Positions 4,932 through 43,926 of a DNA stretch of 64,000 nt are shown here, piece after piece; the stretch's first letter is position 1; each line of letters starts with the position of its first letter. Location of the stretch: assembly GCA_036660175.1 (NCBI GenBank), contig JAVXBD010000001.1:4511-68510 (forward strand). The letters run 5' to 3'. A model generated the notes under the pieces. That model was not told the DNA's origin. It made no database searches and saw only the letters and a program-made list of their open reading frames with translations. The DNA is from Christensenellaceae bacterium (GTDB lineage Bacteria > Bacillota > Clostridia > Christensenellales > Christensenellaceae). A program made the translations under genes and the position numbers.

Positions 4932-5226
4932 ATTCTTACACCCCCCCCTGCTTCTACGATTATCATATTGCAAAATCATCGCCTTTCAAATACAAATACG
5001 CACAAAAAGTGTTTAAAAATTCATACGAAAATAAACAAAATAATCTTGATGCAAAAATGATGGTTAAAATTTATATGAATGTTGTTTGATTTTTTATCAT
5101 TTATTCTTTTTTAAACAATAATAGGTGCTTTTTCATTATTTTTGGTGTAATATTTTACCATAAGTATAAATACCTGCATTGAACTTTAACAAACTTCCTT
5201 CCATTTTATAGAAAGGGCGGCTCATT

Positions 5227-10900: not shown

Positions 10901-10903
10901 AGT

Positions 10904-26940: not shown

Positions 26941-26983
26941 TTAAATTTACAATATTAATGCGGTTTTACATTTGTAAATTTAA
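26941..26983 (+). promoter_or_regulatory. Nested inverted repeats in the leader (candidate SorC operator or leader hairpin)
   Basis: TTAAATTTACA (26941-26951) is the exact reverse complement of TGTAAATTTAA (26973-26983). Inside it, TTTACA-TT-TGTAAA (26965-26978) is a second palindrome. It starts about 5 nt after the -10. Confidence 0.45.
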
Positions 26984-27002
26984 ACGAGTAAGGAGCAAGC
27001 AT

Positions 27003-27971: not shown

Positions 27972-28003
27972 ATTAAAATATATAAAATGAAAAGGAGTAT
28001 TCT

Positions 28004-28963
28004 ATGCAACTTACAAGAGAAAAAATGGCAGACATGATGTATAAAATGTACTGCGCAAGATCATTTGAAGAACGCGTAAACGAAATGTTTATGAAGGGTG
28101 AAATACACGGTACGACTCACTTAAGTATTGGACAAGAGGGTTGTGCGGTAGGTGTTGTTTCTGCAACAAGAAAAGACGATTTGATGATGAGTCATCACAG
28201 AGGTCACAGTCATTGTATTGCAAAAGATGCCGACATTAACAAGATGATGGCTGAATTACTTGGTAAATCAACTGGATTTTGTAAAGGTATGGGCGGTTCT
28301 ATGCACATCGTTGACATTAACAGCAACAACTATGGTGCTAACGGTGTTATTGGTCCATCTATACCGATTGCATCAGGAATTGCACTTGCCTTAAAAAAAG
28401 ATAAGTCAGATAAGATAATCGTTGACTTTTTTGGTGATGGCACTACAAACTCTGGTTTGTTTCACGAAGCGTTAAATATGGCTTCTTTATGGAAGCTCCC
28501 CATTATATATATTTGTGAAAACAACCTATATGGTATGTCTACATCTGTTCAGAAGAGCATGGCTGTTGAAAACGTTGCTGATAGAGCATCTGCATACAAT
28601 ATGCCTGGTGTAATTGTTGATGGAAATGATGTGCTTGCGATTATGGCAGCGGTGGAAGAAGCGGCTGAGCGTGCAAGAACAGGCGGCGGCCCTACTTTAA
28701 TAGAGCTTAAGACATATAGATGGCTCGGACACTCGAAGAGCGATAAACGTGCCTACAGAACACGTGAAGAAGAAGCTGAATGGAAAGCAAAATGCCCTAT
28801 TAAACGTTTTGGCGCATATATGCTTACGCAAGGTTTTACGCAAGATGAAATTGATGCACTAAAAGCAAAAGCTGAAAAAGCGACTGCTGATGCTGTTGAA
28901 TTTGCACTTGCTTCCCCAGAGTTGACGCTTGAAGAAGCAAAAGCTCTTGTGTTCGCAGAATAA
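28004..28963 (+). CDS. TPP-dependent 2-oxoacid/acetoin dehydrogenase E1 alpha subunit
   Basis: The TPP motif GDGTTNSG ... ENNLYGMST and the 319-aa length are typical of heterotetrameric E1 alpha (AcoA/PdhA type). Confidence 0.9.
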   Translation: MQLTREKMADMMYKMYCARSFEERVNEMFMKGEIHGTTHLSIGQEGCAVGVVSATRKDDLMMSHHRGHSHCIAKDADINKMMAELLGKSTGFCKGMGGSMHIVDINSNNYGANGVIGPSIPIASGIALALKKDKSDKIIVDFFGDGTTNSGLFHEALNMASLWKLPIIYICENNLYGMSTSVQKSMAVENVADRASAYNMPGVIVDGNDVLAIMAAVEEAAERARTGGGPTLIELKTYRWLGHSKSDKRAYRTREEEAEWKAKCPIKRFGAYMLTQGFTQDEIDALKAKAEKATADAVEFALASPELTLEEAKALVFAE

Positions 28964-28977
28964 GGAGGAGTTAATTA

Positions 28978-29958
28978 ATGAGTATTATTACATTTAAACA
29001 AGCAATATCAGATGCTTTAAAAGAAGAATTACGCAGAGATGACAAAGTTTTTCTGATGGGCGAAGACATGGGAATCTATGGTGGATGTTTCGGCGTAACT
29101 GCTGGGTTCTTAGATGAATTTGGCGAAGAAAGAATCATGGACACACCAATTTCTGAAGGTGGCTTTACTGCTATGGCAGTTGGCGCAGCCATGAAAGGAT
29201 ACCGTCCTGTTGTCGAGTATATGTTCTCTGATTTTTGTACTGTTGCAATGGATGCAATTGTCAATCAGGCTGCAAAATCACGTTTTATGCTTGGCGGGCA
29301 AGTTAAAGTGCCTTTGGTTATCAGAACCCCATCGGGCAGCGGTACTGGTGCAGCAGCACAGCATAGTCAAAGTTTAGAAGCTTGGTTCTGCCATGTTCCT
29401 GGACTTACCGTTATTGCACCATCAAGCCCCTATGATGCAAAAGGCTTACTCAAAGCTGCAATCAGAAGTGATAACCCTATTATGTTCTACGAGCATAAAA
29501 TTGGTTATAGCGTAAAAGGCGAAGTTCCTGATGAAGAATACGTTCTTCCAATTGGAAAAGCAGACATTAAAAGAGAAGGCAAAGATGTTACCATTATCAG
29601 CTATGCCTACACTCTTCAAAAATGCTTAAAGGCAGCAGAAATGCTTGAAAAAGATGGGATTGATGCAGAAGTTTTAGATTTGCGTACCGTAAGCCCTCTT
29701 GACAAAGAAGCAATTATTAAATCTGTTAGCAAAACAGGCAAAGCATTTATTACTCATGAAGGTGTACAGAAGTTTGGTGTTGGTGCTGAAGTTTCAAGTA
29801 TCATAACAGACAGCGAAGCATTTTTCCATCTTGATAGACCTGTTAGACGTTTTGGCGGTGCGGACGATATACCGATTCCCTATTCACCAAAATTAGAGGC
29901 GCAAGTTGTGCCGCAGGTTGAAACAATCTATCAAGGCGTAAAAGACTTATTAAAGTAG
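28978..29958 (+). CDS. 2-oxoacid/acetoin dehydrogenase E1 beta subunit
   Basis: Transketolase-like pyrimidine-binding and C-terminal domains (VFLMGEDMG ... RIMDTPISEGGF ... PIMFYEHK). 326 aa. Confidence 0.9.
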   Translation: MSIITFKQAISDALKEELRRDDKVFLMGEDMGIYGGCFGVTAGFLDEFGEERIMDTPISEGGFTAMAVGAAMKGYRPVVEYMFSDFCTVAMDAIVNQAAKSRFMLGGQVKVPLVIRTPSGSGTGAAAQHSQSLEAWFCHVPGLTVIAPSSPYDAKGLLKAAIRSDNPIMFYEHKIGYSVKGEVPDEEYVLPIGKADIKREGKDVTIISYAYTLQKCLKAAEMLEKDGIDAEVLDLRTVSPLDKEAIIKSVSKTGKAFITHEGVQKFGVGAEVSSIITDSEAFFHLDRPVRRFGGADDIPIPYSPKLEAQVVPQVETIYQGVKDLLK

Positions 29959-29971
29959 GAGGTACACAGTT

Positions 29972-30913
29972 TTGAGCGAAATTATGTCCACTCCTGCTTC
30001 TAAACGACTTTCAAAAGAACGCGGGATAGATCTAAGAAAGGTAAAACCAAGTGGTATCACGGGATATATACAATTATCCGATGTCATAAACTTTAGAGGC
30101 GTAAAAGCAACGCCTTTAGCGATTGCGATTGCCGAATATAATAATATTGATATTGAACAAGTTCATGCTGATGGCGGTGTAATCCGTAAAAGCGATGTAC
30201 TTGCTTATATCGAAAATCCAACTGGCAGCACAACGATTCCTGTTGATGGAATGCGTAAAGTTATCGCACAACGTATGATGCAAAGTATGCAGGCTTCTCC
30301 TCAATATACTATGTTTATGGAAGTTGATGTTTTTGCAGTCAAAAAATTCTTTGCAGCCTATAAAGCGGAATGCTTGGAAAATGGGCAGCCAAAACCAACA
30401 TTGTCCGATGTGTTTATAAAAGCATGTGCGATGGCATTAAAAGAACATCCAATTGTTAACTCAACGTTCTATGATACGTATATTGAAATGCACAGAGATA
30501 TTAATGTTGGACTTGCAGTTGCACTGGAAAACGGTTTGATTGTGCCAAATATCAAAAATTCAGACTTGAAATCACTTGCAGAAATTACAGCAGATAGAAT
30601 TGGAATTGTTGGACGTGCAAGAGAAGGCAAACTTGCTCCTGACGATTGTTCAGGCGGAACGTTTACTATCACAAATTTAGGTCAGTTCCCTGTTGAATAT
30701 GCGACACCTGTTATTAATCAACCTGAAAGTGCAATTATTGGGCTTGGTACCATGGTTGACAAGGTGGTAGTAATTGATGGGAACATAGGCATTCATCCAA
30801 TGATGGGTATCAGTGTTACCTTTGATCATCGTCATGTTGACGGTGCTGCAGGCGGTAAATTCATGGGAACATTAAAAGAAATTTTAAGCAATCCGCAATC
30901 TTTGCGGGACTAA
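29972..30913 (+). CDS. Dihydrolipoamide acyltransferase E2 core lacking a lipoyl domain (two subunit-binding domains plus catalytic domain)
   Basis: Two PSBD-like segments (TPASKRLSKERGIDLRKVKPSGITGYIQLSDV; ATPLAIAIAEYNNIDIEQVHADGGVIRKSDVLAYI). They are followed by the catalytic domain with DHRHVDGA. There is no ETDK lipoyl motif, and only 13 nt separate it from E1 beta. TTG start 8 nt after AGGAGG. Confidence 0.85.
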   Translation: MSEIMSTPASKRLSKERGIDLRKVKPSGITGYIQLSDVINFRGVKATPLAIAIAEYNNIDIEQVHADGGVIRKSDVLAYIENPTGSTTIPVDGMRKVIAQRMMQSMQASPQYTMFMEVDVFAVKKFFAAYKAECLENGQPKPTLSDVFIKACAMALKEHPIVNSTFYDTYIEMHRDINVGLAVALENGLIVPNIKNSDLKSLAEITADRIGIVGRAREGKLAPDDCSGGTFTITNLGQFPVEYATPVINQPESAIIGLGTMVDKVVVIDGNIGIHPMMGISVTFDHRHVDGAAGGKFMGTLKEILSNPQSLRD

Positions 30914-30928
30914 AAAAGGAGTAACGAT

Positions 30929-32674
30929 ATGGGTAATTTTATACTTATGCCAAAACTTGGCATGACTATGACAGATGGAAAAATAATCAAATGGCTAAAA
31001 AATATAGGTGATGATGTAGAAAAGGGCGACTATGTTTTTGAAGTTGAAACAGATAAGACTTCTTTGGAAGTTGATGCTTTATATGACGGTAAACTTTTAA
31101 AAATATTCTTTGATGAGGGCGAAACTGCTCCTATCAACTACCCTGTTGGCTATATTGGTGCCGAGGGTGAAGAGATTCCCCCACTTCCAGAGATGGAAAA
31201 CGCACCAGCAGCAGAAACAGAAACAAAAGCAGCACCGGCAGCGGCTGCTCCTAAGGCTGCTCCCAAAAAAGAAGCAAAACCGAAAAAGAAAATTGATATG
31301 AGCAAATTTGACTATGAGCTTCTTGTGATTGGGGCTGGTCCTGGTGGATATGTTGCGGCAATTCGTGCAGCACAGCTTGGCGCAAAAGTTGCCATTGTTG
31401 AATGTGACGAAGTTGGTGGCACTTGCCTAAACCGTGGCTGTATTCCTACTAAAGCACTTTACACCAGTGCAAAAGTTTTTGGCAAACTCAAACATTGTGC
31501 TGATTATGGATTGAGCGTATCTGGTGCAGGATTTGACTGGAAAAAAATAATGGAGCGCAAAGACGGCATTGTAAAACAATTGACTACAGGTGTTGCGGGA
31601 CTGCTTAAGAAAAACGGTGTTACAATTATCAAAGGCAGAGCAAAAATCACAGATGCAAATACAGTTGAAGTTGACTTAAACGGAACAAAAACAAAGCATT
31701 CTGCTGGATATATTATGATTGCAACAGGTACACAGCCAATCAGCGTACTTAAAAATGTTGATAAGGCTGTAAAGATTAATACCACTGATGATATTCTTAC
31801 AATGCAAACCTTGCCTAAGAGCATGGTTATTGTGGGCGGTGGCGTTATTGGTGTTGAAATTGCAAACATTATGTCATCGTTTGATGTTGATGTAACAATT
31901 TTAGAGCTTATGCCTACTATTATTCCTATGGTTGATGCGGAAATTTCTACCATGTTAAAGAGTAAACTTGTTGCAAAAGGTGTAAAAATCTTAAACGAAG
32001 TAACAGCAAATACCATTAAAAAAGATGGCAAGGACAATGTTTTAGAACTTTCAAATGGTGAAACAATTAAGTGCGAATATATTCTTGAGGCTGTTGGACG
32101 TGGTGTCGTAAGCGATGCTTTTGCAGACATGAAACTCTCTACTTCTCCAAGAGGATTTATCACAGTTGATGACTCTATGTGTTCCAGTGTTGATAGCATT
32201 TATGCAATCGGCGATGTAACGGGAGGCTATATGCTTGCTCACGAAGCATCAGAGCAAGGAATTATTGCTGTTGAAACAATGTTTGGCGAAGCACCAACTG
32301 GCGAAATGTTAATACCATCATGTATCTTTACAGAACCAGAAATCTCCTTTGTTGGCAAAACAGAGCAGCAGGCAAAAGATGCAGGGATTCCTGCTAAAAG
32401 CTTTAAGTTCCCATTTGCAGCTAACGGAAAAGCATTGACATTAGGTGAATCTGATGGATTTGTAAAAGTTGTTGTAGATGAGCGTTATGGCGAGATACTC
32501 GGTGTTCACATTATTGGACCTGAAGCATCCAGCTTAATTCATGAGGCTGTCATGGCTATGAATTTAGAAGCAACTGCACAGTCGGCGGGTCATGTTGTTC
32601 ATGCACATCCGACACTTTCAGAAGCTCTTATGGAAGCATTCTTAGGAGCAAGCACAGGCGCTATACATATGTAA
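30929..32674 (+). CDS. Dihydrolipoyl dehydrogenase E3 with an N-terminal lipoyl domain
   Basis: Residues 1-80 form a lipoyl domain (MPKLGMTMTDGKI ... VETDKTSLEVDA). Then comes an Ala/Pro/Lys linker, then E3 (GAGPGGY, redox disulfide GGTCLNRGCIPTK, C-terminal HAHPTLSE). Confidence 0.9.
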   Translation: MGNFILMPKLGMTMTDGKIIKWLKNIGDDVEKGDYVFEVETDKTSLEVDALYDGKLLKIFFDEGETAPINYPVGYIGAEGEEIPPLPEMENAPAAETETKAAPAAAAPKAAPKKEAKPKKKIDMSKFDYELLVIGAGPGGYVAAIRAAQLGAKVAIVECDEVGGTCLNRGCIPTKALYTSAKVFGKLKHCADYGLSVSGAGFDWKKIMERKDGIVKQLTTGVAGLLKKNGVTIIKGRAKITDANTVEVDLNGTKTKHSAGYIMIATGTQPISVLKNVDKAVKINTTDDILTMQTLPKSMVIVGGGVIGVEIANIMSSFDVDVTILELMPTIIPMVDAEISTMLKSKLVAKGVKILNEVTANTIKKDGKDNVLELSNGETIKCEYILEAVGRGVVSDAFADMKLSTSPRGFITVDDSMCSSVDSIYAIGDVTGGYMLAHEASEQGIIAVETMFGEAPTGEMLIPSCIFTEPEISFVGKTEQQAKDAGIPAKSFKFPFAANGKALTLGESDGFVKVVVDERYGEILGVHIIGPEASSLIHEAVMAMNLEATAQSAGHVVHAHPTLSEALMEAFLGASTGAIHM

Positions 32675-32819: not shown

Positions 32820-33959
32820 TTAGTAGTTTCCATATTTTAGACAGGTATCAAAAAATGTCTGAACGTTTTGTGGCGATACATCTGACTGTATATTATGTAT
32901 TGATGCAAAAACAAAACCACCATTGGGTTTAAAATCTAATACACGTTTTTTCGTTTCCTGCTGTACATCAGAAGTACTTCCCTGTGACATAATAACAGGA
33001 TTTGCTCCACCGCCCCAAAAAACGAGGTCTTTACCAAATTCTCTTTTTAGCTTTGCACTATCCATGTTTTTTGCTTGAATCTGCACAGGATTTAAAATAT
33101 CAACCCCAACATCAATCAAATCAGGAATAAACTCATACATACTGCCACAGCCGTGATAATAAACTTTTGCATCAGTATTCGCTTTGATACAATCAACTAA
33201 CTCTCTATGCCGCCACTTAAATATATCTCTATATGTTTTGGGATTAAATAGAGGTCCTGTCTGACTGCCTAAATCATCACCAATCTGCACAACTTGTACA
33301 TATTTTCCGATTTCTTTTAGGCATAGCGGCCAAAAAACCAAATACCAATCCAACACTTTTTGTGCAATACATTCAATTGCTTTTATATCTGCCGCCAAAT
33401 CCATATACATGACTTGAATGCTACGTAACGCATAAATCTGTTCAAAAATTCCCCATATTGGGCTATATAGAACCAATGCCTTATCGGTATGTTCATACAA
33501 ATATTGAACTTCTTCTTTTAAATTTTTTAAACGTGCCTTGTCATTCGGATCTGGCATCTGCCATTTTTTCAACTGTTCATATGTATAATCTTCAAGTACA
33601 CATTTTTCAAAATCATAATATAAACCATGATCTTTAGGGCATCTAAGTTTCGTTCCTAACTGATCATAATATGTCGTATATTTTCCCTCATCAACGATGT
33701 CCAGCGAATAACCGGTGCGTGGTTTTGTATGTATCGGCAAAACATCTGAATGAAATCTATCCAACAATCGCTTGTCTGGGAAAACAATTTGCTGAAAGCA
33801 ATCTTGAATTTTTGTTTCATAATAATCAAACTTATAAAACGCTGCAAGTGCTTTTTCACCATCTCTGTGAATGCTGTCGTGTACCCCACCAAAAGCGATG
33901 GGCACACGATCAGCTTCTTTATGATTTAATGCGCATATTATACGCTCTCGTGAGGTCAT
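32820..33959 (-). CDS. URO-D/MT2-like protein, paralog (last gene of the importer operon)
   Basis: 379 aa. The N-terminus MTSRERIICALNHKEADRVP is almost the same as the paralog at 38725-39849. HGCG motif (KVYYHGCGSMYEF) and GVDILNPVQ block. Confidence 0.7.
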   Translation of the reverse strand: MTSRERIICALNHKEADRVPIAFGGVHDSIHRDGEKALAAFYKFDYYETKIQDCFQQIVFPDKRLLDRFHSDVLPIHTKPRTGYSLDIVDEGKYTTYYDQLGTKLRCPKDHGLYYDFEKCVLEDYTYEQLKKWQMPDPNDKARLKNLKEEVQYLYEHTDKALVLYSPIWGIFEQIYALRSIQVMYMDLAADIKAIECIAQKVLDWYLVFWPLCLKEIGKYVQVVQIGDDLGSQTGPLFNPKTYRDIFKWRHRELVDCIKANTDAKVYYHGCGSMYEFIPDLIDVGVDILNPVQIQAKNMDSAKLKREFGKDLVFWGGGANPVIMSQGSTSDVQQETKKRVLDFKPNGGFVFASIHNIQSDVSPQNVQTFFDTCLKYGNY

Positions 33960-33961
33960 GA

Positions 33962-34930
33962 TCAGTCACTTATTTTCTCTTTTACAAGTTTGTCCAGCAA
34001 TACTGCTAAAACCAATACCATGCCTTTTACAACATATTGATAGAACGGAGGAACACCTGCCTGATTCATGCCTATTCCCAATATAATCAATATGAAGGCA
34101 CCGGCAATTGTTCGTGCTACTGAGCCTTCTCCGCCAAAGAAACTTGTACCACCCATCAGGATGGCAATGATTACATCAAGCTCAAAACCCATGCCTGCTG
34201 TGGCATCACCAATGGTCATATTTGAAGCTCTGATAACTCCTGAGAATGCCGCTGCGCAACCAACCATTGCATACAAAACCCAAACAATCATTTTTACGTT
34301 TATACCTGCAAGTTGTGCTGCCGTTTGATTTCCGCCAATAGCGATTGAATATTTACCAAATATACTTTTCTTCTGCAGTAAGACAAATATCACAACTGCT
34401 GCTATCATCAAAAATAATTGTATAGGAACGCCACCAACATCGCCTCTTCCAAGAAAACCAAAATCTTTTGGAAGATTTCCTTTTACGTACGGTATGGTTT
34501 CTCCACACATTAGTTTTGAAACACCAAGCAGAATATTCATTGTTGCCAGTGTCGCAATAACAGGAATTATTTTTAGTTTTACTACAATAAACCCGTTTAT
34601 AATTCCGATACCAATACCAACAATTGCTACTAAAATAGCCGAGATAGGAGTTGCTATTCCTATCTTACAGAATGTTGCAAACAAAACACCCGAAAATCCA
34701 AGTATGCTGCCTACAGAAAGATCAACATTTCCAGAAAGCATTAACAGTGTTGCAGCCGCAGAGGTAATAACCAGCGGTGCTGCGGTGCGCAAAATATTAT
34801 TTACGCTTGCAATTGATAAAAACTTTGGTGAAAGTGCCCAGAATATAATCACAAATAACAGTAATATGCCATAAACATAAAGATTTTTTACTGCATTTCT
34901 CCATGAAACCTTTTTTATGCTTTGTATCAT
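33962..34930 (-). CDS. Sugar ABC transporter permease (RbsC-type)
   Basis: 322-aa polytopic ORF resembling 251-1282 and 1272-2273. Confidence 0.85.
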   Translation of the reverse strand: MIQSIKKVSWRNAVKNLYVYGILLLFVIIFWALSPKFLSIASVNNILRTAAPLVITSAAATLLMLSGNVDLSVGSILGFSGVLFATFCKIGIATPISAILVAIVGIGIGIINGFIVVKLKIIPVIATLATMNILLGVSKLMCGETIPYVKGNLPKDFGFLGRGDVGGVPIQLFLMIAAVVIFVLLQKKSIFGKYSIAIGGNQTAAQLAGINVKMIVWVLYAMVGCAAAFSGVIRASNMTIGDATAGMGFELDVIIAILMGGTSFFGGEGSVARTIAGAFILIILGIGMNQAGVPPFYQYVVKGMVLVLAVLLDKLVKEKISD

Positions 34931-34966: not shown

Positions 34967-35959
34967 TTATTTATTCATTTTGTTTATGGCTGCTCTTTGT
35001 AAGAGTATAGCAGCGATAATAACAATTCCTTTTACAATAACCTGCCATTCAGGTGCTGCGGCAAAGAGGTTTAATGCGTTTTGGAGAACGCCGATGATAA
35101 ATACACCGATTACCATGCCAATAACAGAACCAGAACCGCCCTGCATACTTGTTCCGCCAAGAACAACTGCAACAACTGTATCAAATTCGTATCCGACTCC
35201 AACTTTACAATCGCCAGCGCCTAATTTTGAAGCAAGCAGCACACCAGCAAACCCAGCAATCAAACCACTCATCATAAACAATGTTGAAATTCTTTTGTTT
35301 ACTTTTACACCAGATAGTTCCGCTGCTTTTCTGTTTGCACCGATATAGAAAATTTGTCTGCCAAAGACTGTTTTATTTTGAATAAACATAAATACGAGTA
35401 CAAGTACAATCATTGTAATAACTGGTATCGTAAAGAATTCTGCGATTTCTACCTGCCCAAAAATTCTAAATTCTGGCGGCAAACCGACTTCAATCATTGA
35501 GCCATTTGCAAAAATATAAGCAAGTCCACGTGCAATAGACATCGTACCTAATGTTGCCACAACTGACGCCATACCAAGTTTTACTACCAAAAGAGCATTT
35601 AATGCCCCTATCAGCAACCCTACAAAAGAGGCAAGTATGACTGCAATTGCGAATGGAAGTCCTAAACCGCCATAGCTTGCAGGCTGGCAGAACCACGCAC
35701 ACATAACACCTGATGCACCAATAATAGAACCAATTGATAAATCAAAGTTACCTGTTATCATCAAAAATGTAATGGATACACCCACAATTACCAAAATTGA
35801 CTGCTGCGTAATAATGTTTCTAATATTAGAAGAATTCAAAAAACTCGGTTGTACCAAAGAAATTACAATAATCAGTATTCCCAATATCGCAAGCATAATA
35901 AGGGTGAGCTTTGATTGCTTTGAAAATCTGTTTTTTAAGGTTTTTTCCATATTATTCAC
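34967..35959 (-). CDS. Sugar ABC transporter permease (RbsC-type)
   Basis: 330-aa polytopic ORF. Its start overlaps the ATPase stop by 8 nt. Confidence 0.85.
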   Translation of the reverse strand: MNNMEKTLKNRFSKQSKLTLIMLAILGILIIVISLVQPSFLNSSNIRNIITQQSILVIVGVSITFLMITGNFDLSIGSIIGASGVMCAWFCQPASYGGLGLPFAIAVILASFVGLLIGALNALLVVKLGMASVVATLGTMSIARGLAYIFANGSMIEVGLPPEFRIFGQVEIAEFFTIPVITMIVLVLVFMFIQNKTVFGRQIFYIGANRKAAELSGVKVNKRISTLFMMSGLIAGFAGVLLASKLGAGDCKVGVGYEFDTVVAVVLGGTSMQGGSGSVIGMVIGVFIIGVLQNALNLFAAAPEWQVIVKGIVIIAAILLQRAAINKMNK

Positions 35960-37439
35960 CCCCCGTTACTATATGTATAATCTTTTCACCGTCAATATCT
36001 TTACCATTGTTGATTTCACCTTTTAGTTCGCCGTCATACATCAGTAAAATCCGATCACATAAATTTAAAACTTCTGGCAATTCTGAGCTAAACACCATAA
36101 TCGTCTTTCCGTTCTTAGATAAATCTCGTATGATATTATGTATTTCTTCTTTTGCCCCAACATCAACGCCTCTTGTTGGTTCATCTAACAGTAAAATATC
36201 CGAATCTGAGAACAGGCATTTTGCAAAGACCACTTTTTGTTGATTTCCACCTGACAAAAGCGATACTTCTTTTTCGTCTGTATTGGTAACGATGTTTAGC
36301 ATTTCGATATGCTCTTGAGAAACTTTTAGCTCAGCCTTAGAAGAAATAATACCACTTGAAGCAATTTTTTTCATATTCATCACAGGAATGTTTTGACGAA
36401 TAGACAATATCGAAAAAATACCTTCCGTTCTTCGTTCTTCTGGAGCAAGTGCAATTCCGCTTTCTATGGCTTCCGTAGCATTTTTAAACTTTACTTCTTT
36501 ATTATTGATAAGCATCTTGCCTTCAAATTGATCAATTCCATATATTGTGTTTGAAAGCTCTGTTTTTCCAGCACCTACAAGTCCATATACACCAATGACT
36601 TCGCCTTTAAAAACATCAAAAGAAACATTTTTCAATTTTTTGTTTGTTATATTTTTTAATTCAATAATTTTTGTATTATAATCAACCTTATTGGGTATGT
36701 ATTCTTCTACAACTGTTTTTCCGAGTATCATTTTTACAAGCTCTGTTCTATCTTTCACTTCGGAAATACTCTTTGTTTCTATATGCTTTCCATCTCTTAA
36801 AACAGTAACATAATCACCTATTTCAAATATTTCGTCTAATCTGTGAGAAATATAGATCACAGTAACATTTTTCGCTTTTAGTTCATTAATTATTTTAAAG
36901 AGTCTGTCAATTTCAGATTCTGATATGGCGGCAGTTGGTTCATCCATAATGATGATTTCCGCATCAGTAGCAATTGCTTTTGCGATTTCTACAATTTGTT
37001 TTTTTGCAACACTTAACTTAGAAACAAGAGTTTTAATATTGATGCTTGGTTCAATGCTCTTCAACGTTTCTATGCTTTTTCTTACTTGTTCATCTTTTTT
37101 AAAAAAACCGAGTTTTGTTTTTTCCATTCCAAGCGAAAGATTTTCTTCTACCGTTAGCTGATCAACAACATTTAATTCTTGAAACAAGGTGCTAATTCCA
37201 GACTCACGTGCTTCTTTTGTGCTGCTTGCAGAAAACTCTTTTTCATTTAAATAAATAATACCGCTTGTTCGAGGCTGTGCACCTGTCAAGATTTTAATAA
37301 GAGTCGATTTTCCAGCACCGTTTTCTCCCAACAAACAATGAACAGTATTTCTTTTAATATCAAAACTGACATCGTTTAACGCTGTCACGCCAGGAAATTT
37401 TTTTGTGAGGTTTTTAAATTGTAATATATGATCGTCCAT
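35952..37439 (-). CDS. Sugar ABC transporter ATP-binding protein, duplicated ABC domains
   Basis: Walker A motifs GENGAGKST and GLVGAGKTE, signature LSGGNQQK, Walker B IIIMDEPT and ILLLDEPTRGVD. Confidence 0.9.
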   Translation of the reverse strand: MDDHILQFKNLTKKFPGVTALNDVSFDIKRNTVHCLLGENGAGKSTLIKILTGAQPRTSGIIYLNEKEFSASSTKEARESGISTLFQELNVVDQLTVEENLSLGMEKTKLGFFKKDEQVRKSIETLKSIEPSINIKTLVSKLSVAKKQIVEIAKAIATDAEIIIMDEPTAAISESEIDRLFKIINELKAKNVTVIYISHRLDEIFEIGDYVTVLRDGKHIETKSISEVKDRTELVKMILGKTVVEEYIPNKVDYNTKIIELKNITNKKLKNVSFDVFKGEVIGVYGLVGAGKTELSNTIYGIDQFEGKMLINNKEVKFKNATEAIESGIALAPEERRTEGIFSILSIRQNIPVMNMKKIASSGIISSKAELKVSQEHIEMLNIVTNTDEKEVSLLSGGNQQKVVFAKCLFSDSDILLLDEPTRGVDVGAKEEIHNIIRDLSKNGKTIMVFSSELPEVLNLCDRILLMYDGELKGEINNGKDIDGEKIIHIVTGGE

Positions 37440-37468
37440 TTACCTGTCTCCCCTCAAATCATATTTTA

Positions 37469-37498
37469 TGCGGCAGGGATTTTGCAGCCCCTACCGCA
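37469..37498 (-). other. GC-rich intercistronic stem-loop between the binding-protein and ATPase genes
   Basis: tgcggcaggg (37469-37478) pairs with ccctaccgca (37489-37498), with a 10-nt loop and one G-U pair on the transcript. No clean U-tract follows. Confidence 0.55.
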
Positions 37499-37514
37499 CA
37501 AACATATTATTTTT

Positions 37515-38654
37515 TTATTTACCTGCTTTTGTTAAATCAGCTGTTGATTTATATTCATCTGTCAGCCATTTTTGAGCTTCGTCAACAGGCATTGTCCAAT
37601 AGTCAATTTCTTTATCTGTGCATTCAACCGTTAATTTCTCATCAGGATTGATTTCTCCTGTATAAGCTTTCATGATTGTATCTAATTTTGTTTGAGCGTT
37701 CTCCATTGGAGTAAGTCCCATTGTTACTTTGAAAGATGATGATGGATCATAAATCAACATCAATTCTGCTTCTGTTGCGTCTGTTCCAACAAGAATTTCT
37801 GTTTCTGGAACGCCATCAACAGCTTTTCCTCTTCCAGCTTCTTGAAGTGCAGGCCATATTGCCAATGAATAATCAGATGCTGCGCCATAGAAGATGTTTG
37901 TTTCTGGACAAGCTTGGATAATATCTTGAGCAACTTTGTAACCTGTGTCACGTGTGCCGCCGCCATCAACGATCATGCCTTCTTTAGCATCAGGAGCAAC
38001 GCTCTTGATTCCTTCAATAAACGGACCTGTTCTCATTTCTTGAACTGTTGGGTTATCAATGTAGTCAACTACACTGTATACAATAGGTTTGTCAGGATGG
38101 AATTCAATCCATTTTTCAGCTGAAACTTTACCCATTTGGAAAGCACTTTCCGCTTCGTTGATTGCAACGAAAGGAACGTTGTTTGGTGTTTCTAAATAGA
38201 ATGTTATGATTGGAATCCCAGCAGCTCTTGCCGCATCAATACCAGGTACTACAGATTCTGCTTCATAAGAATGAAGAACGATCATGTCTACGCCTTCAGC
38301 AATTAACTGATCTAAGTTTGATACAATTGTAGGTTGCTCAAATTTTCCGTCAAGTACTTTTACTTCTGCACCATACTGCTCTTTTGCTAACTGTGTAAAC
38401 CAGTCAACATCAGCTTGATGGTAGCCATTAGCTAAAGTAATCGGAATTTTACCAATAACGAGTCCCTCAGGAATCTCTTTTGGAGCATCAGCAGCAGGAG
38501 CTTCTGTTGCTGCGTCTGCAGCGGGAGCCTCTGTTGCCGCTGGAGCATCTGTTGCTGCTGGAGCAGCAGGAGCTGCAGGTGCACAAGATGTACCTACTGC
38601 GACTACACCAAGAATCATTACGACACAAAGTGCAATACAAATAATTTTTTTCAT
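37515..38654 (-). CDS. Sugar ABC transporter substrate-binding lipoprotein (type I, RbsB-like) with an Ala/Pro-rich tether
   Basis: Signal peptide plus lipobox (VAVGTSC). Then an APAAPAAPAATDAPAATEAPAADAATEAPAADAP linker, then a PBP1 fold sequence. Confidence 0.85.
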   Translation of the reverse strand: MKKIICIALCVVMILGVVAVGTSCAPAAPAAPAATDAPAATEAPAADAATEAPAADAPKEIPEGLVIGKIPITLANGYHQADVDWFTQLAKEQYGAEVKVLDGKFEQPTIVSNLDQLIAEGVDMIVLHSYEAESVVPGIDAARAAGIPIITFYLETPNNVPFVAINEAESAFQMGKVSAEKWIEFHPDKPIVYSVVDYIDNPTVQEMRTGPFIEGIKSVAPDAKEGMIVDGGGTRDTGYKVAQDIIQACPETNIFYGAASDYSLAIWPALQEAGRGKAVDGVPETEILVGTDATEAELMLIYDPSSSFKVTMGLTPMENAQTKLDTIMKAYTGEINPDEKLTVECTDKEIDYWTMPVDEAQKWLTDEYKSTADLTKAGK

Positions 38655-38724: not shown

Positions 38725-39849
38725 TTATTCATATTTACCATATTTTTTAATAAACTCGAACATCTTTATGAAATTTTCAGGTGGTGTATCTGGCTGCACA
38801 TGGTTAGCAGTAGAAATAATATATCCACCGCCTGGTGCAAATGCATCAAGACGCTTTTTTACTTCTTTCTCAACATCATCAACATTGCCGATTAGGGCTT
38901 GCTGAATATCAATGCCGCCATGCAGCACAACATCATTACCAAAAGTTTCTTTGATTTTTTTAGAATCCATACCATTTGCCAGTGGCTGCAATGGATTTAA
39001 AACATCTACACCCATTTCAATAAAATCAGGTATATAGTCAAATATTGCTCCGCAGGAATGCAAAAATATTTTCATATTCGGAAATTTTTTCTTGATTGCT
39101 CCAAACATTCTCTCAAAAGGTTTTTTGAAAAACTCTCTGAAACAATCGGGTGAAATAAACGGAGCTTCTTGTGTACCAAAATCCGAAGTAAATTCTACCC
39201 ATTCAACATAAGGTGCGATTGGTTCTAAATAATATAAATTCAGTTCTGTTAAAAATTCTTCGATTTTTTCGATTAAATTATGCGCAAATGTCTTGTTAAT
39301 GTATAAATCCATAAAAAAGTCTTCTGCTCCACGCATGAATTGTCCAAGATCAAAAAATTGTCCTGAAGAAGCAGATGTTGCAGTAATTGCACAGTCTGTT
39401 TGCTCATAGTATTGTTTTGCACGCTCCGCAAGTCCTGCAATTCTGCCTGGATCCTTTGCATTGGGCCATTTATAGTTTGCCAATGCTGATTCATCAGCAT
39501 CTTTTAAAGGATGAAAAGCAACCGTTGGATAGTCGCCTGTCAATAGCCTGCCAATCCCCAATTCATCAATCAAATATCCGTTTTCATTTGTATAAGATTT
39601 AAAATTCTGTGGTTTTCCAATTGTAATGTGTCTAAAATCGCATCCAAAGATGTCGCTCATCCGATAATCTTCATATTCGGTAGCTGTACCAGGTCTAATC
39701 AGCTCTCCTAATTCTGTGAAATTCATCTCTTGCGCAAGTTTCTTATAGAATCTTGCATCCAGTCTTGATGCACTTCCCCACATATCAACAGGCACTCTAT
39801 CGGCTTCCTTGTGATTTAGTGCAAGGCGTACTCTTTCTCTACTTGTCAT
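38725..39849 (-). CDS. URO-D/MT2-like protein, paralog
   Basis: 374 aa. MTSRERVRLALNHKEADRVP N-terminus, HSCG motif (IFLHSCGAIFDY), GVDVLNPLQ block. AAGGAG ribosome-binding site. Confidence 0.7.
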   Translation of the reverse strand: MTSRERVRLALNHKEADRVPVDMWGSASRLDARFYKKLAQEMNFTELGELIRPGTATEYEDYRMSDIFGCDFRHITIGKPQNFKSYTNENGYLIDELGIGRLLTGDYPTVAFHPLKDADESALANYKWPNAKDPGRIAGLAERAKQYYEQTDCAITATSASSGQFFDLGQFMRGAEDFFMDLYINKTFAHNLIEKIEEFLTELNLYYLEPIAPYVEWVEFTSDFGTQEAPFISPDCFREFFKKPFERMFGAIKKKFPNMKIFLHSCGAIFDYIPDFIEMGVDVLNPLQPLANGMDSKKIKETFGNDVVLHGGIDIQQALIGNVDDVEKEVKKRLDAFAPGGGYIISTANHVQPDTPPENFIKMFEFIKKYGKYE

Positions 39850-39876: not shown

Positions 39877-41412
39877 TTAAAATTTTTGCTGAAATTTTGA
39901 AATTTTATCGTATACGCCACCATTGGCTAAACTTTCATATGCGTCACAATAGATGGCATACATTTCATCATAAATGACAACATTTTTTGAAATCGGCTCA
40001 AATCTCTTTGCGGGTTTTACCATTGCTTTAGCTGCTTGTACAACATTTTCGTATACACCAATTCCCACAGCGGCACACATTGCTGCACCCAAAACAGCTG
40101 CATCTTTTACGGCAAGTGTTTCCACTGGAATATTGTACATGTCTGCCTGTATTTGATTCCAAATATCAGATTTTGTTGCACCGCCAATAACTCTTCCTAC
40201 GTTGACATCAAATCCATTTTTTCTGATTGCAGTAATGATGTCACGCATCTCCATTGTAATTCCTTCCATACAGGCTCTTGCCATGCAAGCCCTATCATGC
40301 GCAAGCGTTAATCCTAAAAACGCACCACGTGCATTAGAATTCCATCGAGGAGCTGCAGAACTTGCAAAATACGGCATCATAATCAGCCCTTTTGCACCAA
40401 CGGGTACAGTTTCTATCATTTTATTTAAATCTTCAAAGATATTTGTGTGATTATTTTTTGACTGAAAGTTTTCAAGTGCTGCAATTTCTGTTGAAAACCA
40501 TTTGTAAACAACCGCAGCAGCATTTTGAAGCCCTTCAAATTCCCACATACCATGCAGTGCATGATTTGTTACCATGGTATTGCCCGTTGCATCTCTGTAT
40601 TTTGAATTCAGCAATGCTGTTGCAAGGCCGCCAGTACCAAGGGATGCTGAAACAATTCCACTTTCTACAACACCAGCACCGATTGCTGCACTGTTTTGGT
40701 CACCAATTCCAACACAAATGGGTGTTCCTTTTGCAAAAACACAGTTGCTTGTTACTTCACCAATTTTTGTACCAGACTGCATCACTTTAGGCAGTATTTT
40801 TTTGTCAATTTCAAACTTAGAAATCAACTCACTGCTATATTTACAATTATCGGTTTCCCACAATCCCCAAAAGGCTGCATCTGGCTCATCTGTATAATAA
40901 TCATCTGCGCCTAATTGCTTTAAGATATAATCCTGTACTTGACAAACTTTTTTTGTTCTTTGCCAAATTTGTTGCTCATATTGACGAACCCACATGATTT
41001 TAGGCAGAATCCAACAAGTGTTCAGCGGTAAACCAGATATTCTATAAAACTCATCTTTACCAAATTTTAAATCAAGTTCTTCAACTTGCTCACTTGCACG
41101 GTTATCCATCCATGAAATCATCTTGATGGGTTGGTCGTTTTCATCAATAAAAATGCACGAACTTCTTTGTGCAGAAATACTAATTGCAGCAATTTCTTTT
41201 GCATCAATCTGACTGGCAGCCATAGCAAGTTCACTTGCTTTTAAAACCGCATTAAAAAGTGTTTGCGCATCCTGCTCTACCCAGTTTGGCTTCGGGTAAA
41301 TACAAGGATACTCTACATATCCGCTGGACAGCGCATTTCCTTCAAAATCAAATAGTATTGTTTTTGTGCCAGTTGTGCCGACATCAATTCCCACCACATA
41401 AGCTTTTTTCAT
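39877..41412 (-). CDS. FGGY-family carbohydrate kinase (xylulokinase/LsrK/gluconokinase class; substrate unknown)
   Basis: N-terminal ATPase motif GIDVGTTGTK, central GIGDQNSAAIGAG, C-terminal GGATKSDIWNQIQADM. 511 aa. GGAGGG ribosome-binding site. Confidence 0.88.
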   Translation of the reverse strand: MKKAYVVGIDVGTTGTKTILFDFEGNALSSGYVEYPCIYPKPNWVEQDAQTLFNAVLKASELAMAASQIDAKEIAAISISAQRSSCIFIDENDQPIKMISWMDNRASEQVEELDLKFGKDEFYRISGLPLNTCWILPKIMWVRQYEQQIWQRTKKVCQVQDYILKQLGADDYYTDEPDAAFWGLWETDNCKYSSELISKFEIDKKILPKVMQSGTKIGEVTSNCVFAKGTPICVGIGDQNSAAIGAGVVESGIVSASLGTGGLATALLNSKYRDATGNTMVTNHALHGMWEFEGLQNAAAVVYKWFSTEIAALENFQSKNNHTNIFEDLNKMIETVPVGAKGLIMMPYFASSAAPRWNSNARGAFLGLTLAHDRACMARACMEGITMEMRDIITAIRKNGFDVNVGRVIGGATKSDIWNQIQADMYNIPVETLAVKDAAVLGAAMCAAVGIGVYENVVQAAKAMVKPAKRFEPISKNVVIYDEMYAIYCDAYESLANGGVYDKISKFQQKF

Positions 41413-41454: not shown

Positions 41455-42612
41455 TTAAATCGCTTTTTCTCTCATTTCAACAATTGTTTCAAGTAATGCA
41501 ACAACATTTTCAAGAGGTACATCGTTCATAATTTCTTGTGCCGGCGCTATAATATGGCCACCGCCTTTTCCAAGAATTGTAATTGCTTCTCTTGCCATCG
41601 TTTTTACTTCTTCTGGTGTTTTGGTCGGCAGTGTTTGTGTATCAATTCCGCCCCAGAAAACAAGATCTTTACCGTATTCACGTTTTAAATATTTTAAATC
41701 ATTACATGGCTGTACAGGTTCCCAGCCATCAAGGCCAATATCAATTAGTTGAGGCAGGTAGTCAATCATTGCTCCACATGAGTGCATAATGATGTACTGC
41801 CCATTCTTTTTATATTCAGAAAACAATCTCTTATAATGAGGCAAAATTTGTTCAGTAAACATTTTAGGTGAGAAAAATCCACTGATTTGCATACCTAAAT
41901 CATCACCATGATGAGCAAACTTAAAGCCCATATCGGACTTCACTTGTGCAAGTTTCATTCTATAATCCGTTACTTTTTCCATCAAGCACGAACATAACAT
42001 TGGATTGCCTGCCATTTCTGTCATAAATCTTTCCCAACCCATCAATGCGTAAGAACGCTCATAGGTTGCAAAATATCCAGAAGGAATGATGCACATATCT
42101 CCAGCAACACCATCTTTATCTCTTTCATACCATGTTAAGTTTTGAGGATCTAATGGATCTGGTATTTCATAGTTCATGATAGCATCTTCAAAAGACATAT
42201 CCATATATTTTGTTAATCTTTCAGGCAGAACTTTTCTAGCAGCCTTGTCTTTTTCTTTGTCGCCCATCAGCACACCATAATCTGTAAAGAATCCATCCTC
42301 ACCAATTACAATACCAAGACCCCAACGATCGTATACATGATTATTTTCAAAATCTGTATATACATATCCTTTTTTTGCAAGTTCGGTCATCATTTCTGGA
42401 TCATTTCTCCAAAAAAGAGGAATATCATCTGTTGCATAAGTAAATGCAATATGATTTTCTAAATAATCATCGAGCTGGTCTGGGCTGTCAAGACCTAACG
42501 CTTCACTAATTGCTTTGTCACGTGTTCTGTCGGAAAAGGAAATTTGACTTGGCAAATAGTCGATATTACGTTTTTCAAATAGTGCCAGTACTCTGTCCGC
42601 TTTTGTCATCAT
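41455..42612 (-). CDS. URO-D/MT2-like protein, paralog (first gene of the operon)
   Basis: 385 aa. HSCG motif (YIIMHSCGAMIDY) and a GLDGWEPVQ block. AGGAGG ribosome-binding site 9 nt upstream. Confidence 0.7.
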   Translation of the reverse strand: MMTKADRVLALFEKRNIDYLPSQISFSDRTRDKAISEALGLDSPDQLDDYLENHIAFTYATDDIPLFWRNDPEMMTELAKKGYVYTDFENNHVYDRWGLGIVIGEDGFFTDYGVLMGDKEKDKAARKVLPERLTKYMDMSFEDAIMNYEIPDPLDPQNLTWYERDKDGVAGDMCIIPSGYFATYERSYALMGWERFMTEMAGNPMLCSCLMEKVTDYRMKLAQVKSDMGFKFAHHGDDLGMQISGFFSPKMFTEQILPHYKRLFSEYKKNGQYIIMHSCGAMIDYLPQLIDIGLDGWEPVQPCNDLKYLKREYGKDLVFWGGIDTQTLPTKTPEEVKTMAREAITILGKGGGHIIAPAQEIMNDVPLENVVALLETIVEMREKAI

Positions 42613-42893
42613 AATAAAATACCTCCTAATATAGTGCTTACTCTCATTTCATCATAAAAGTTCTTGTTCATAATTTATAGTTTAAAGATAATATTATAAA
42701 ATTATACTGCTAAAATTATATTTTTGTAAAATATGGTTCTTCTTTGCTTACTATTAGAATATAATTTTGCAAAGCATATGTCAATAAATTTAAGGTTTCG
42801 GATGCACATTTGTTCATATATATGCCTATTCGTAATATACAAGACTTAATATAACAATTTTCCATGTATATTTATCAAATAATTTACGGAAAC

Positions 42894-42922
42894 TTGACAT
42901 TATCGTTCTATATTTATATAAT
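42894..42922 (+). promoter_or_regulatory. Consensus sigma-A promoter of the second SorC regulator
   Basis: TTGACA (42894-42899), a 17-nt spacer, then TATAAT (42917-42922). Confidence 0.65.
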
Positions 42923-42928
42923 ATTAGT

Positions 42929-42940
42929 GAACATTTGTTC
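42929..42940 (+). promoter_or_regulatory. Palindromic candidate operator GAACA-TT-TGTTC at the predicted transcription start
   Basis: It sits 6 nt after the -10. An imperfect second copy (GCACA-TT-TGTTC) is at 42804-42815. The core ACATTTGT is shared with the leader palindrome at 26965-26978. Confidence 0.45.
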
Positions 42941-42966
42941 GGATAAGTTTTGAAGGAGATTATAAA

Positions 42967-43926
42967 ATGAGCAGTACCTATTCCAGAGAGCAACTTGTTA
43001 AAGTTTCAAAACTTTACTATTTAGGAAATATGAGCCAAGAGGACATCAGTAAGATTATGAATATTTCACGTCCAATGATTTCTAGAATGCTAAGTATGGC
43101 ACGTGAACGTAAAGTAGTAGAGTTTAAAATCAATTCCTCTCCCTCATTATATTCTGAAATGTCAAAAAAAATACAGGATTTTTACAATTTAAAATATGTT
43201 TATGTAGTGCCATCATCTTTTTCTCAAGAAGAATCAAAACTTGAAGTTGCAAAGAAAGCTGCTGATTTTTTAAATCTACAGTTGAAAAATGATATTGTGA
43301 TTGGCTGTGCATGGGGTACAACAATTGACAGATTTGTACACGCATTCTTGCCCGAAAAAACAATTTCTGGTGCATCGGTTATGCAATTAACAGGCAGCCT
43401 CAATGCGCATATTGTAGAAACAGATGGCAGAGAACTCGCAAAAGAGCTTGCAACGAAATTAAATGCACAATTATACACGCTTCAAACGCCGTTGATTGTT
43501 GGAAATCCACTGCTAAAGCAGCTCTTGATTGATGAACCCGAAACAAGAAGACAATTTGATATGTTTAGAAATATTGACATCGCTTTTGTTGGTGTTGGCT
43601 CCAGTAAGCCTGAAAACAGTGTTTCCTATAAAGCTGGATATATTACAAAAGAAGAAGCACAGGTTTTGGAGGATATGGGTGCAGGTGCCGATATTTGCGG
43701 ACATCGTATTACAAAAAATGGTAATAAGGTCCAGACAATACTAACGGACAGAGTTATTTCAATTGATCTTGACACGCTCAAGCAAATACCGTTGGTTGTT
43801 GCACTTGGTGCTGGCGAGGACAAAGCCCCTACCATTGTTGCAGGAATACGTGGAAAATACATAGATGCAATTATTATTGACGAGCTTGCTGCGATTTCAA
43901 TTATAGAAACTGAAAAGATGATATAA
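42967..43926 (+). CDS. SorC/DeoR-family sugar-binding transcriptional regulator (LsrR/CggR/DeoR class)
   Basis: HTH (YYLGNMSQEDISKIMNISRPMISRMLSMARERKVV) plus a SorC effector domain (GCAWGTT ... VGVG ... ALGAGEDKA). It is divergent from the importer/kinase operon. Confidence 0.85.
   Translation: MSSTYSREQLVKVSKLYYLGNMSQEDISKIMNISRPMISRMLSMARERKVVEFKINSSPSLYSEMSKKIQDFYNLKYVYVVPSSFSQEESKLEVAKKAADFLNLQLKNDIVIGCAWGTTIDRFVHAFLPEKTISGASVMQLTGSLNAHIVETDGRELAKELATKLNAQLYTLQTPLIVGNPLLKQLLIDEPETRRQFDMFRNIDIAFVGVGSSKPENSVSYKAGYITKEEAQVLEDMGAGADICGHRITKNGNKVQTILTDRVISIDLDTLKQIPLVVALGAGEDKAPTIVAGIRGKYIDAIIIDELAAISIIETEKMI

Follow-up and report, generated by a model that had tools for sequence, protein, structure and literature searches.

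Inside two sugar-importer operons of a small, gut-type anaerobe of the Christensenellaceae lie the genes of a divergent set of proteins with the uroporphyrinogen decarboxylase (URO-D or UroD) fold, which are candidates for corrinoid-dependent methyl transfer. The stretch of DNA analysed here (the window) comprises 64,000 nucleotides, C1:4511-68510 of a 1.55-Mb, 98%-complete assembly, and carries four of these genes, named U1 to U4; a fifth, U5, lies outside the window. All five are on the minus strand, and each product carries a His-x-Cys-Gly motif, a second motif of the NPxQ type and a third, distal motif. These read VHSCGD, GVDAINPIQ and AASHDY in U1 (3879-4979, likely start 4931); YHGCGS, GVDILNPVQ and ASIHNIQ in U2 (32820-33959); LHSCGA (H264, C266), GVDVLNPLQ (Q288) and STANHVQ (N349, H350) in U3 (38725-39849); MHSCGA, GLDGWEPVQ and APAQEIM in U4 (41455-42612); and YHGCGD, GLDGYNPVE and SDHSV in U5 (C1:787-1953), which thus has Glu where U1-U4 have the NPxQ Gln. 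An earlier note on this DNA had listed the four open reading frames (ORFs) of the window with their motifs, and listing and translation of the ORFs recovered all of them at the same coordinates and on the minus strand. At U1, the N-terminus of the family agrees better with the start given in that note, 4931 (MNSRQRG...), than with the longer ORF from 4979. Its count of four paralogs is right for the window and one short for the locus, with U5 lying upstream. Pairwise identity among U1-U5 is only 21-32%, and they are therefore old lineages rather than recent copies. The closest public relative of U3, from an uncultured Christensenella sp., is 79% identical.

As the earlier note had remarked, every copy sits within a sugar-importer operon. 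Operon B, on the minus strand with gaps of -8 to 75 bp, starts with U4, followed by an FGGY-family carbohydrate kinase (39877-41412) that is nearest to xylulokinase and gluconokinase models and falls under every equivalog cut-off, and by U3. Then come the genes of a CUT2 (ribose/xylose-type) ATP-binding cassette (ABC) importer, namely a substrate-binding lipoprotein (37515-38654; Pfam Peripla_BP_4) with only distant matches to ribose-, rhamnose- and galactofuranose-binding (YtfQ-type) proteins, a double-cassette ATPase (35952-37439) and two permeases (34967-35959 and 33962-34930; Pfam BPD_transp_2). U2 is the last gene. The isomerase normally needed by a xylulokinase-like kinase is missing from the operon. 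A SorC/DeoR-type regulator with a Sugar-bind domain (42967-43926, plus strand) diverges from operon B across a promoter region (42613-42966, both strands) in which promoter-like sites occur at 42730-42701 on the minus strand (11/12) and at 42894-42922 on the plus strand (12/12), both as consensus matches only. Convergent with U2, a SorC-type regulator (26958-27971) and a pyruvate/acetoin-dehydrogenase-type complex occupy 26958-32674 on the plus strand; the complex consists of E1 alpha, E1 beta, an E2 of 313 amino acids (aa) with no lipoyl domain, and an E3 of 581 aa with an N-terminal lipoyl domain. Operon A, also on the minus strand, begins with U1, continues with an ATPase (2270-3793) and two permeases (1272-2273 and 251-1282) and runs past the window start into a binding protein (C1:3444-4688), a 433-aa protein and, as its last gene, U5, 2.6 kb before the window start. 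The genes that diverge from operon A encode a response regulator of the AraC type, a histidine kinase and a sensor-like binding protein.

The active-site motifs relate these proteins to methyltransferases of the MtaA type. In a MAFFT alignment of 113 sequences, clade members and MtaA-like proteins together, drawn from about ten phyla, H-x-C is kept almost throughout the clade (~100 members, ~10 phyla), the few exceptions being H-x-D or degenerate. By HMMER and by MAFFT, H264 and C266 of U3 fall on the H-x-C that MtaA (PDB 4ay7) and the MtaA-like proteins of this genome carry, and within the U3 orthogroup (24 sequences, 52-79% identical) H264, C266, G267, Q288, P289, N349 and H350 are invariant. 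This column-by-column correspondence supports the earlier proposal that H-x-C is the first half of an MtaA-type zinc site. The MtaA ligands, which we take to be His240, Cys242, Glu263 and Cys319, fit the 4ay7 alignment at a SEQRES offset of +6. In the column of the distal Cys of MtaA-like proteins (P/A-G-C-D/E/G), U1, U2 and U5 have H, U3 has N then H, and U4 has Q then E, so that the distal ligand position does differ, as had been suspected, from both characterised branches of the fold. Tobacco HemE (1j93) has Y-A-S-G at the position of H-S-C-G. The Asp of the G(V/L)D string, which the earlier note regarded as conserved, proved to be D, E, Q, K, R, S, N or T across the clade and was for that reason rejected as a ligand candidate; the conserved residue is the Gln of NPxQ, 24 residues after the motif His, a spacing similar to that of the labile Glu ligand of MtaA and MetE.

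An AlphaFold2 model of U3 has a predicted local distance difference test score (pLDDT) of 92 and a predicted template-modelling score (pTM) of 0.90. In this model the three motifs directly follow strands 260-264, 283-285 and 343-346, which make up the catalytic face of the barrel; a comparison of structures had been proposed as a check on whether the His and Cys reach the active-site pocket, and the predicted location at the C-terminal strand ends agrees with this. A Foldseek search with the U3 model placed MtaA 4ay7 at the top (E 2e-15; TM-score 0.76 normalised to target), ahead of about 25 UROD structures, with MetE after these. One subclade of U3 homologs, from Desulfosporosinus, Peptococcaceae and Moorella (loci L052, L053, L054, L055, L057 and L070; match at ~10001-11120 in most), has A-N-V instead of A-N-H together with a new His right after the Gln (PIQH). 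On sequence grounds this may be a compensating move that relocates a functional residue. A pterin methyltransferase and/or a corrinoid protein is directly adjacent at five of these six loci.

A search of the genome for corrinoid proteins, another of the checks suggested earlier, found one stand-alone corrinoid protein of 210 aa (C67:1543-2175, minus; B12-binding_2 plus B12-binding), adjoined by a RACo activase (C67:1-1464, minus). No second B12-binding_2 domain exists in the genome. Elsewhere, on the plus strand of C22:9094-11675, a homocysteine-S-methyltransferase/MTHFR fusion is followed by a 264-aa pterin-binding protein. Because these methionine-synthase parts come without a B12 module and the sole B12-binding_2 domain is on C67, the one corrinoid protein suggests itself as a hub for both methionine synthesis and the methyltransferases. 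As to B12 synthesis, CobS is present (C12:14963-15655), with no sign of corrin ring synthesis: only one genuine TP_methylase match was obtained, and with a single tetrapyrrole methylase there would be no corrin (or sirohaem) ring methylation, so that cobamides would be salvaged or remodelled. The organism thus appears to salvage or remodel cobamides, and the proposed enzymes would need B12 supplied by the community. The genome further encodes three MtaA-like proteins (in the region C45:4219-9551, at C63:2854-3861 and at C77:90-1190), two of them with His-Cys-Cys, which resemble the Mlp proteins encoded in type 1 mlp gene clusters. The C45 protein has no zinc His (FFVCGN) and carries a C-terminal thioredoxin-like domain; its gene is flanked by radical S-adenosylmethionine (SAM), CobW-type GTPase/metallochaperone, class II aldolase and major facilitator superfamily (MFS) genes. 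In a metagenome-assembled genome (MAG) of an Oscillospiraceae member (L001), the same gene set is contiguous with a corrinoid protein, RACo and a U3 homolog.

Relatives in other organisms bring the corrinoid protein next to the URO-D-fold gene. A census was made of 80 U3-homolog loci from species genomes, searched within 10 kb with seed proteins of this genome. A stand-alone corrinoid protein was found at 17/80 loci, at 15 of them within 2.5 kb, and at 12 of the 39 loci with at least 5 kb on both flanks; chance expectation is ~2%, given one to ten corrinoid proteins per ~3-Mb genome (binomial p ~4e-13 for 17/80). The arrangements differ from one lineage to another. Desulfosporosinus and Peptococcaceae (42% identical to U3) have an AraC regulator, a pterin methyltransferase, U3 and the corrinoid protein; Ca. 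Heteroruminococcus (57%) has the corrinoid protein, U3 and SorC; Oscillospiraceae (57%) have an mlp-type cluster, DUF2284, RACo, U3, SorC and a phosphotransferase system (PTS); and Treponema (55%) has a NifS-like protein, U3, DUF2284, the corrinoid protein, an Mlp-like protein, RACo and PocR. At a second Treponema locus (L019) the order is NifS-like protein, U3, DUF2284 and corrinoid protein, then U2 and a CUT2 importer, and at yet another locus (L084) a U1-type relative is directly beside a corrinoid protein and near RACo. A maximum-likelihood tree unites U1-U5 and their relatives in one clade, apart from Mlp-like and MtaA-like proteins (Shimodaira-Hasegawa-like approximate likelihood ratio test, SH-aLRT, 96). 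On this tree, adjacency to a corrinoid protein has changed independently at least 10 times and occurs in the U1-, U2- and U3-type branches.

The association is also seen between whole genomes. A B12-binding_2 domain, nearly always in an ORF of ~210-270 aa, is present in 50/50 genomes with a U3 homolog, and these genomes were picked mostly from loci showing no corrinoid gene. In a sample of the class, 151 genomes spread evenly with 150 scoreable, a clade member was counted at a profile E <= 1e-22. A stand-alone corrinoid protein occurred in 37/40 clade-positive genomes, the three exceptions being MAGs that are 62-84% complete, and in at least 13/110 clade-negative genomes, most of which have only a MetH of ~800 aa. 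Taking 13/110, the odds ratio is ~92 (Fisher p ~1e-20), and with 20/110 p is still ~4e-17; the same split is found within the families that hold both kinds of genome (f22, f39, f24 and f14). Two genomes with 19-21 B12-binding_2 matches each (G149 and G178) were negative with the clade profile. Up to 12 clade members were scored in a single genome, in different sugar operons. The clade is large: the U3 profile retrieves 1,679 clusters (50% identity) at E <= 1e-30 and 6,980 at E <= 1e-10 from 1.84 billion representatives. Cultured carriers of U3 homologs are Faecalicatena fissicatena KCTC 15010, Clostridium sp. MCC353 and chh4-2, Desulfosporosinus paludis SB140 and Moorella naiadis.

The same census ties the clade to sugar metabolism. 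An FGGY kinase accompanies U3 at 33/80 loci, a SorC-type regulator at 24/80 and a second clade member at 24/80, and the arrangement U4, FGGY kinase, U3 is seen repeatedly, in Bacillota, in Actinomycetota and in a MAG labelled Verrucomicrobiota. A pyruvate/acetoin-dehydrogenase-type E1 is present within 10 kb at 13/80 U3 loci (p ~7e-9 vs 2%) and at 6/80 U4 loci, and E1 genes are linked to U3, U4 or FGGY-kinase genes in at least four phyla. One operon (L044) reads MFS, Fe-alcohol dehydrogenase, U4, FGGY kinase, U3, E1 alpha, E1 beta, E2 and E3, and two others (L067 and L080) unite SorC, E1 alpha, E1 beta, E2 and U3. Since E1 genes adjoin U3 and U4 at these other loci, the complex at 26958-32674 probably belongs to the same pathway as operon B; that it cleaves a ketose or 1-deoxy-ketose phosphate is only a guess. 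A second type of context combines U3 and SorC with a galactitol/ascorbate-type PTS (24/80) and a NifS/IscS-like cysteine desulfurase (23/80). The gene concerned, a class-V 'aminotransferase' directly upstream of U3 (L022:3339-4469, L019:1046-2278 and 21 more), is NifS/IscS-like with 374 bits to NifS, which is under the cut-off, and is often accompanied by the galactitol/ascorbate-type PTS and a DUF2284 metal-binding protein. It might take part in sulfur or selenium chemistry or provide Fe-S for the activase.

Taken with the fold, the equivalence of the motifs, the presence of partner proteins in the genome and the genomic and phyletic linkage to corrinoid proteins, the balance of evidence leans towards U1-U5, and perhaps the 433-aa protein as a sixth, being substrate:corrinoid methyltransferases that act on imported methylated sugar-like compounds. 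We read the members of this large, uncharacterised clade of the UroD superfamily as being of the methyltransferase I (MT I) type. The CUT2 importer would take up a methylated, monosaccharide-like compound, and in the barrel a metal, most likely Zn2+, held by His-x-Cys and the residue at the distal position (His, Asn-His or Gln-Glu), would bind the methyl-bearing heteroatom and turn it into a leaving group; the Gln of NPxQ would replace the labile Glu of MtaA and MetE. The Co(I) of the C67 corrinoid protein, kept reduced by the adjacent RACo, would accept the methyl group, which would then pass to tetrahydrofolate via the 264-aa pterin-binding protein of C22 or to homocysteine via the homocysteine-methyltransferase/MTHFR fusion. 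The demethylated sugar would be phosphorylated by the FGGY kinase, and the product of the U4/kinase/U3 module would probably be processed by the neighbouring pyruvate/acetoin-dehydrogenase-type complex. Of the two sugar-modifying roles that the earlier note had put forward, demethylation is favoured by the linkage between clade and corrinoid protein (17/80 loci; 50/50 genomes; 37/40 vs at least 13/110), and nothing was found in support of decarboxylation. S-methyl compounds were considered as substrates too. An O-methyl ether is favoured because N/O ligands take the place of the soft distal Cys and because many paralogs per genome occur in different sugar operons; O-methyl sugars lead also because UroD-superfamily S-methyltransferases keep a His-Cys-Cys zinc site, whereas O-methyltransferases replace the Cys ligands (PMC10418091).

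Comparison with characterised systems places the paralogs near several of them and within none. MtaA, MtbA and MtsA (PDB 4ay7; TIGR01463) share the (beta/alpha)8 UroD fold and give the best Foldseek match, have H-x-C-G at the same strand end with an acidic or amide residue ~24 residues on, and likewise have a corrinoid-protein partner in the genome; they differ in identity to the paralogs (~18-20%), in models that miss the paralogs' N-terminal third, and in the distal Cys, for which the paralogs have the residues described above. The paralogs also lie in sugar-importer operons, have no coenzyme M and probably act as MT I instead of MT II. It is established that enzymes of the UroD fold serve as MT I for aromatic methyl ethers and for chloromethane (PMC13222342). 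These O-demethylase and dehalogenase systems (OdmB, VdmB, MtvB, MtoB, CdmB) share with the paralogs the proposed role in substrate:corrinoid-protein methyl transfer and the logic of an MT I, a corrinoid protein, a pterin MT II and a RACo/RACE activase, and their gene order is matched by the Peptococcaceae relatives. No close sequence relation to them was detectable (CdmB, PDB 9rui, the one compared, matched only at E = 0.16), their aromatic methyl ethers and chloromethane offer far better leaving groups than a sugar alkoxide, and the paralog genes, in contrast, are scattered in sugar operons with one common corrinoid protein. Type 1 mlp clusters (Mlp1-3, corrinoid protein, RACE; Kountz and Balskus, PMC10418091) draw on the same superfamily and partner proteins; such clusters contain or adjoin several U3 homologs, and the present genome has its three Mlp-like proteins. 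However, Mlps keep His-Cys-Cys and group with coenzyme M methyltransferases, whereas the paralogs form their separate clade, lack the distal Cys and belong to carbohydrate operons. MetE has a related barrel (Foldseek TM ~0.5) and a zinc site of His-x-Cys, a labile Glu ~24 residues on and a distal ligand; it differs in being a double barrel of ~750 aa, in having a distal Cys and in using methyl-folate directly, with no corrinoid.

Several points weigh against corrinoid-dependent sugar demethylation. Neither operon of the window contains a corrinoid protein, an activase or a pterin methyltransferase, and within this genome the link to the corrinoid protein is one that we infer. The MT I enzymes characterised so far usually come each with a corrinoid protein of its own; here, five or six enzymes and three MtaA-like proteins would all have to share a single one, which could instead be there solely for methionine synthesis or for the MtaA-like (mlp-type) proteins. 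U4-type genes are rarely beside a corrinoid protein, which is directly upstream of U4 orthologs in 3/80 metagenome loci (L109, L110 and L127), and co-occurrence between genomes can reflect a shared lifestyle rather than dependence. We know of no natural methylated sugar whose demethylated form could enter an FGGY kinase and a pyruvate/acetoin-dehydrogenase-type complex without the help of an isomerase, and no coherent known pathway was found that joins the kinase, this complex and the Fe-alcohol dehydrogenase. The NifS-like desulfurase at about a quarter of the U3 loci points to sulfur or selenium chemistry and not to O-methyl ethers. As for the metal site, Asn and Gln are poor zinc ligands, and the site may not bind metal at all, a precedent being CdmB, a UroD-fold MT I without zinc (PMC13222342).

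Were the public names of the relatives ('uroporphyrinogen decarboxylase') taken at face value, the paralogs would be true uroporphyrinogen decarboxylases (HemE), and U1-U4 do match PF01208 (URO-D), at 70-91 bits and over the C-terminal two thirds only. This is hardly conceivable: the HemE model TIGR01464 gives U3 28.7, U1 22.8 and U4 15.9 bits and U2 no match, against a cut-off of 302.95, and H-x-C replaces Y-A-S. The N-terminal P-x-W-x-M-R-Q-A-G-R motif for substrate binding is the PROSITE signature of HemE, and an MRQAGR-like string is absent from all nine UroD-fold proteins of the genome. Moreover, a genome of this size without corrin ring methylases has eight PF01208 matches, of which five are of the divergent kind (U1-U5), and all of these copies are located in sugar operons. 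HemE was accordingly rejected, as the earlier note had held, and is excluded as far as sequence can exclude it. That note had called the motif typical of MT2 methyltransferases, and methylcobamide-dependent MT2-type enzymes that methylate an acceptor, whether a thiol cofactor or a sugar hydroxyl, would suit the closest solved structure and the best NCBIfam models, all of the MtaA/MtbA type, and a reaction that is chemically reversible. We nevertheless judge this quite improbable. The NCBIfam models for MtaA/CmuA, MtbA and MtaA give U1-U4 26-82 bits against cut-offs of 235-600 (TIGR01463, NF004889, equivalogs), the MtaA/CmuA model alone 33-73 bits against 235, and the distal Cys is missing; importer, kinase and repressor form a catabolic context; and in Peptococcaceae the pterin-binding protein beside the U3 homolog already fills the MT2 slot. 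MT2 is thus probably the wrong label, the order pterin methyltransferase, homolog, corrinoid protein in the relatives putting the homolog in the MT I position.

A more serious alternative, although still unlikely, is that the paralogs are corrinoid-independent sugar metalloenzymes (isomerase, epimerase, hydrolase or decarboxylase) that share the MtaA barrel and part of its metal site. The lack of a corrinoid gene in operons A and B agrees with this, as do the missing isomerase of operon B, the resemblance of the ligand set (His, Cys, His/Asn/Gln) to catalytic Lewis-acid zinc sites, the B12-free methyl transfer by MetE in the same fold family, and a census in which 46/80 loci have FGGY kinase, SorC or CUT2 genes and only 4/80 have both sugar and corrinoid genes. 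Against it, genes for corrinoid protein, RACo and pterin methyltransferase adjoin close and distant orthologs repeatedly and in independent arrangements, the link at genome level is near-perfect (50/50 and 37/40 vs at least 13/110), and such an activity is not known from any UroD-superfamily member. Somewhat less probable again, though a serious rival in view of the desulfurase and mlp-cluster neighbours, is corrinoid-dependent S- or Se-demethylation, with 5-methylthioribose-type thio-sugars, methylthio-ketopentose phosphates or S/Se-methyl amino acids as substrates and zinc binding a thiolate leaving group, as in MtsA, MtpA or a reversed MtaA. The first Cys ligand is kept, and zinc sites of the His/Cys type do alkylate thiols; the desulfurase is directly beside U3 in 23/80 loci; a route from methylthio-xylulose-phosphate to deoxy-xylulose-phosphate, conceived by analogy with methionine-salvage shunts, would suit a xylulokinase-like kinase and a thiamine pyrophosphate (TPP)-dependent E1; and in Treponema and Oscillospiraceae U3 lies in or beside mlp-type clusters (MtaA-like protein, corrinoid protein, RACE), for which methyl-sulfur or methyl-selenium substrates have been proposed (PMC10418091). 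In every paralog, however, the His-Cys-Cys signature of S-methyltransferases is broken (PMC10418091), up to 12 or more different members per genome, in different sugar-importer operons, fit the variety of O-methyl sugars better than the few known S-methyl sugars, and methylthioribose kinase is normally not of the FGGY family.

Corrinoid-dependent demethylation of O-methyl sugars would bear on how anaerobes of the gut, rumen, termite gut and sediments handle methylated sugars. Such sugars are common in plant, algal and microbial glycans (4-O-methyl-glucuronate, 2-O-methyl-xylose and -fucose, 6-O-methyl-galactose, methyl-inositols), and to our knowledge the only enzymatic sugar demethylation is that of 6-O-methyl-galactose by an oxygen-requiring cytochrome P450. 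Searches of full-text literature yielded no description of this clade, of sugar-linked UroD-fold proteins or of corrinoid-dependent sugar demethylation. A wider proposal, which we offer tentatively and hold to be possible rather than probable, is that the clade is a large, unrecognised radiation of corrinoid-dependent demethylases for aliphatic methyl-ether sugars, working free of oxygen with a new zinc site (His, Cys, His/Asn/Gln) and a shared 'hub' corrinoid protein that passes the methyl group to methionine and folate metabolism, and with a U4/FGGY-kinase/U3 route through a pyruvate/acetoin-dehydrogenase-type complex for a methylated compound of the five-carbon type, which would be an undescribed catabolic route. 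If corrinoid-dependent sugar demethylation is the right reading, more than 1,000 gene families annotated as 'uroporphyrinogen decarboxylase' would need a new assignment, and poor (alkoxide) leaving groups would come within the reach of corrinoid methyltransferases. The availability of vitamin B12 in the gut would then be tied to the use of methylated sugars, and dietary methyl groups could feed methionine synthesis in organisms without a classical MetH.

The 433-aa protein of operon A (C1:2035-3336, minus), between the binding protein and U5 and 1.2-2.5 kb before window position 1, has no match in Pfam, NCBIfam or PDB sequences. Judging from its comparison with the U3 profile (hhalign probability 92%) and from an AlphaFold model (pLDDT 83) whose top Foldseek matches are UROD structures and MtaA, it is predicted to be a very distant URO-D-fold protein. 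Its family has an invariant Y-G-C-C-E at the H-x-C-G position of U1-U5 and adjoins U3/U4-type genes in at least 9 other loci; it is perhaps a sixth member of the same functional set.

The layout of operon B, with a SorC-type repressor, an FGGY kinase and a CUT2 importer, is shared with the Lsr operon for autoinducer-2; it differs in having no LsrF or LsrG and URO-D-fold proteins in their place. Orthology to Lsr was rejected on scores of 240 bits against a cut-off of 528 for the kinase and 116 against 486 for the regulator. Inside operon B, just past the binding-protein gene, is a strong 15-bp stem-loop (37465-37502, minus); structures of this kind occur frequently in ABC operons and are believed to increase the transcript share of the binding protein. 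Elsewhere in the window, a LuxC-like acyl-CoA reductase and a LuxE-like acyl-protein synthetase form a pair (10904-13284, minus) in this non-luminous anaerobe.

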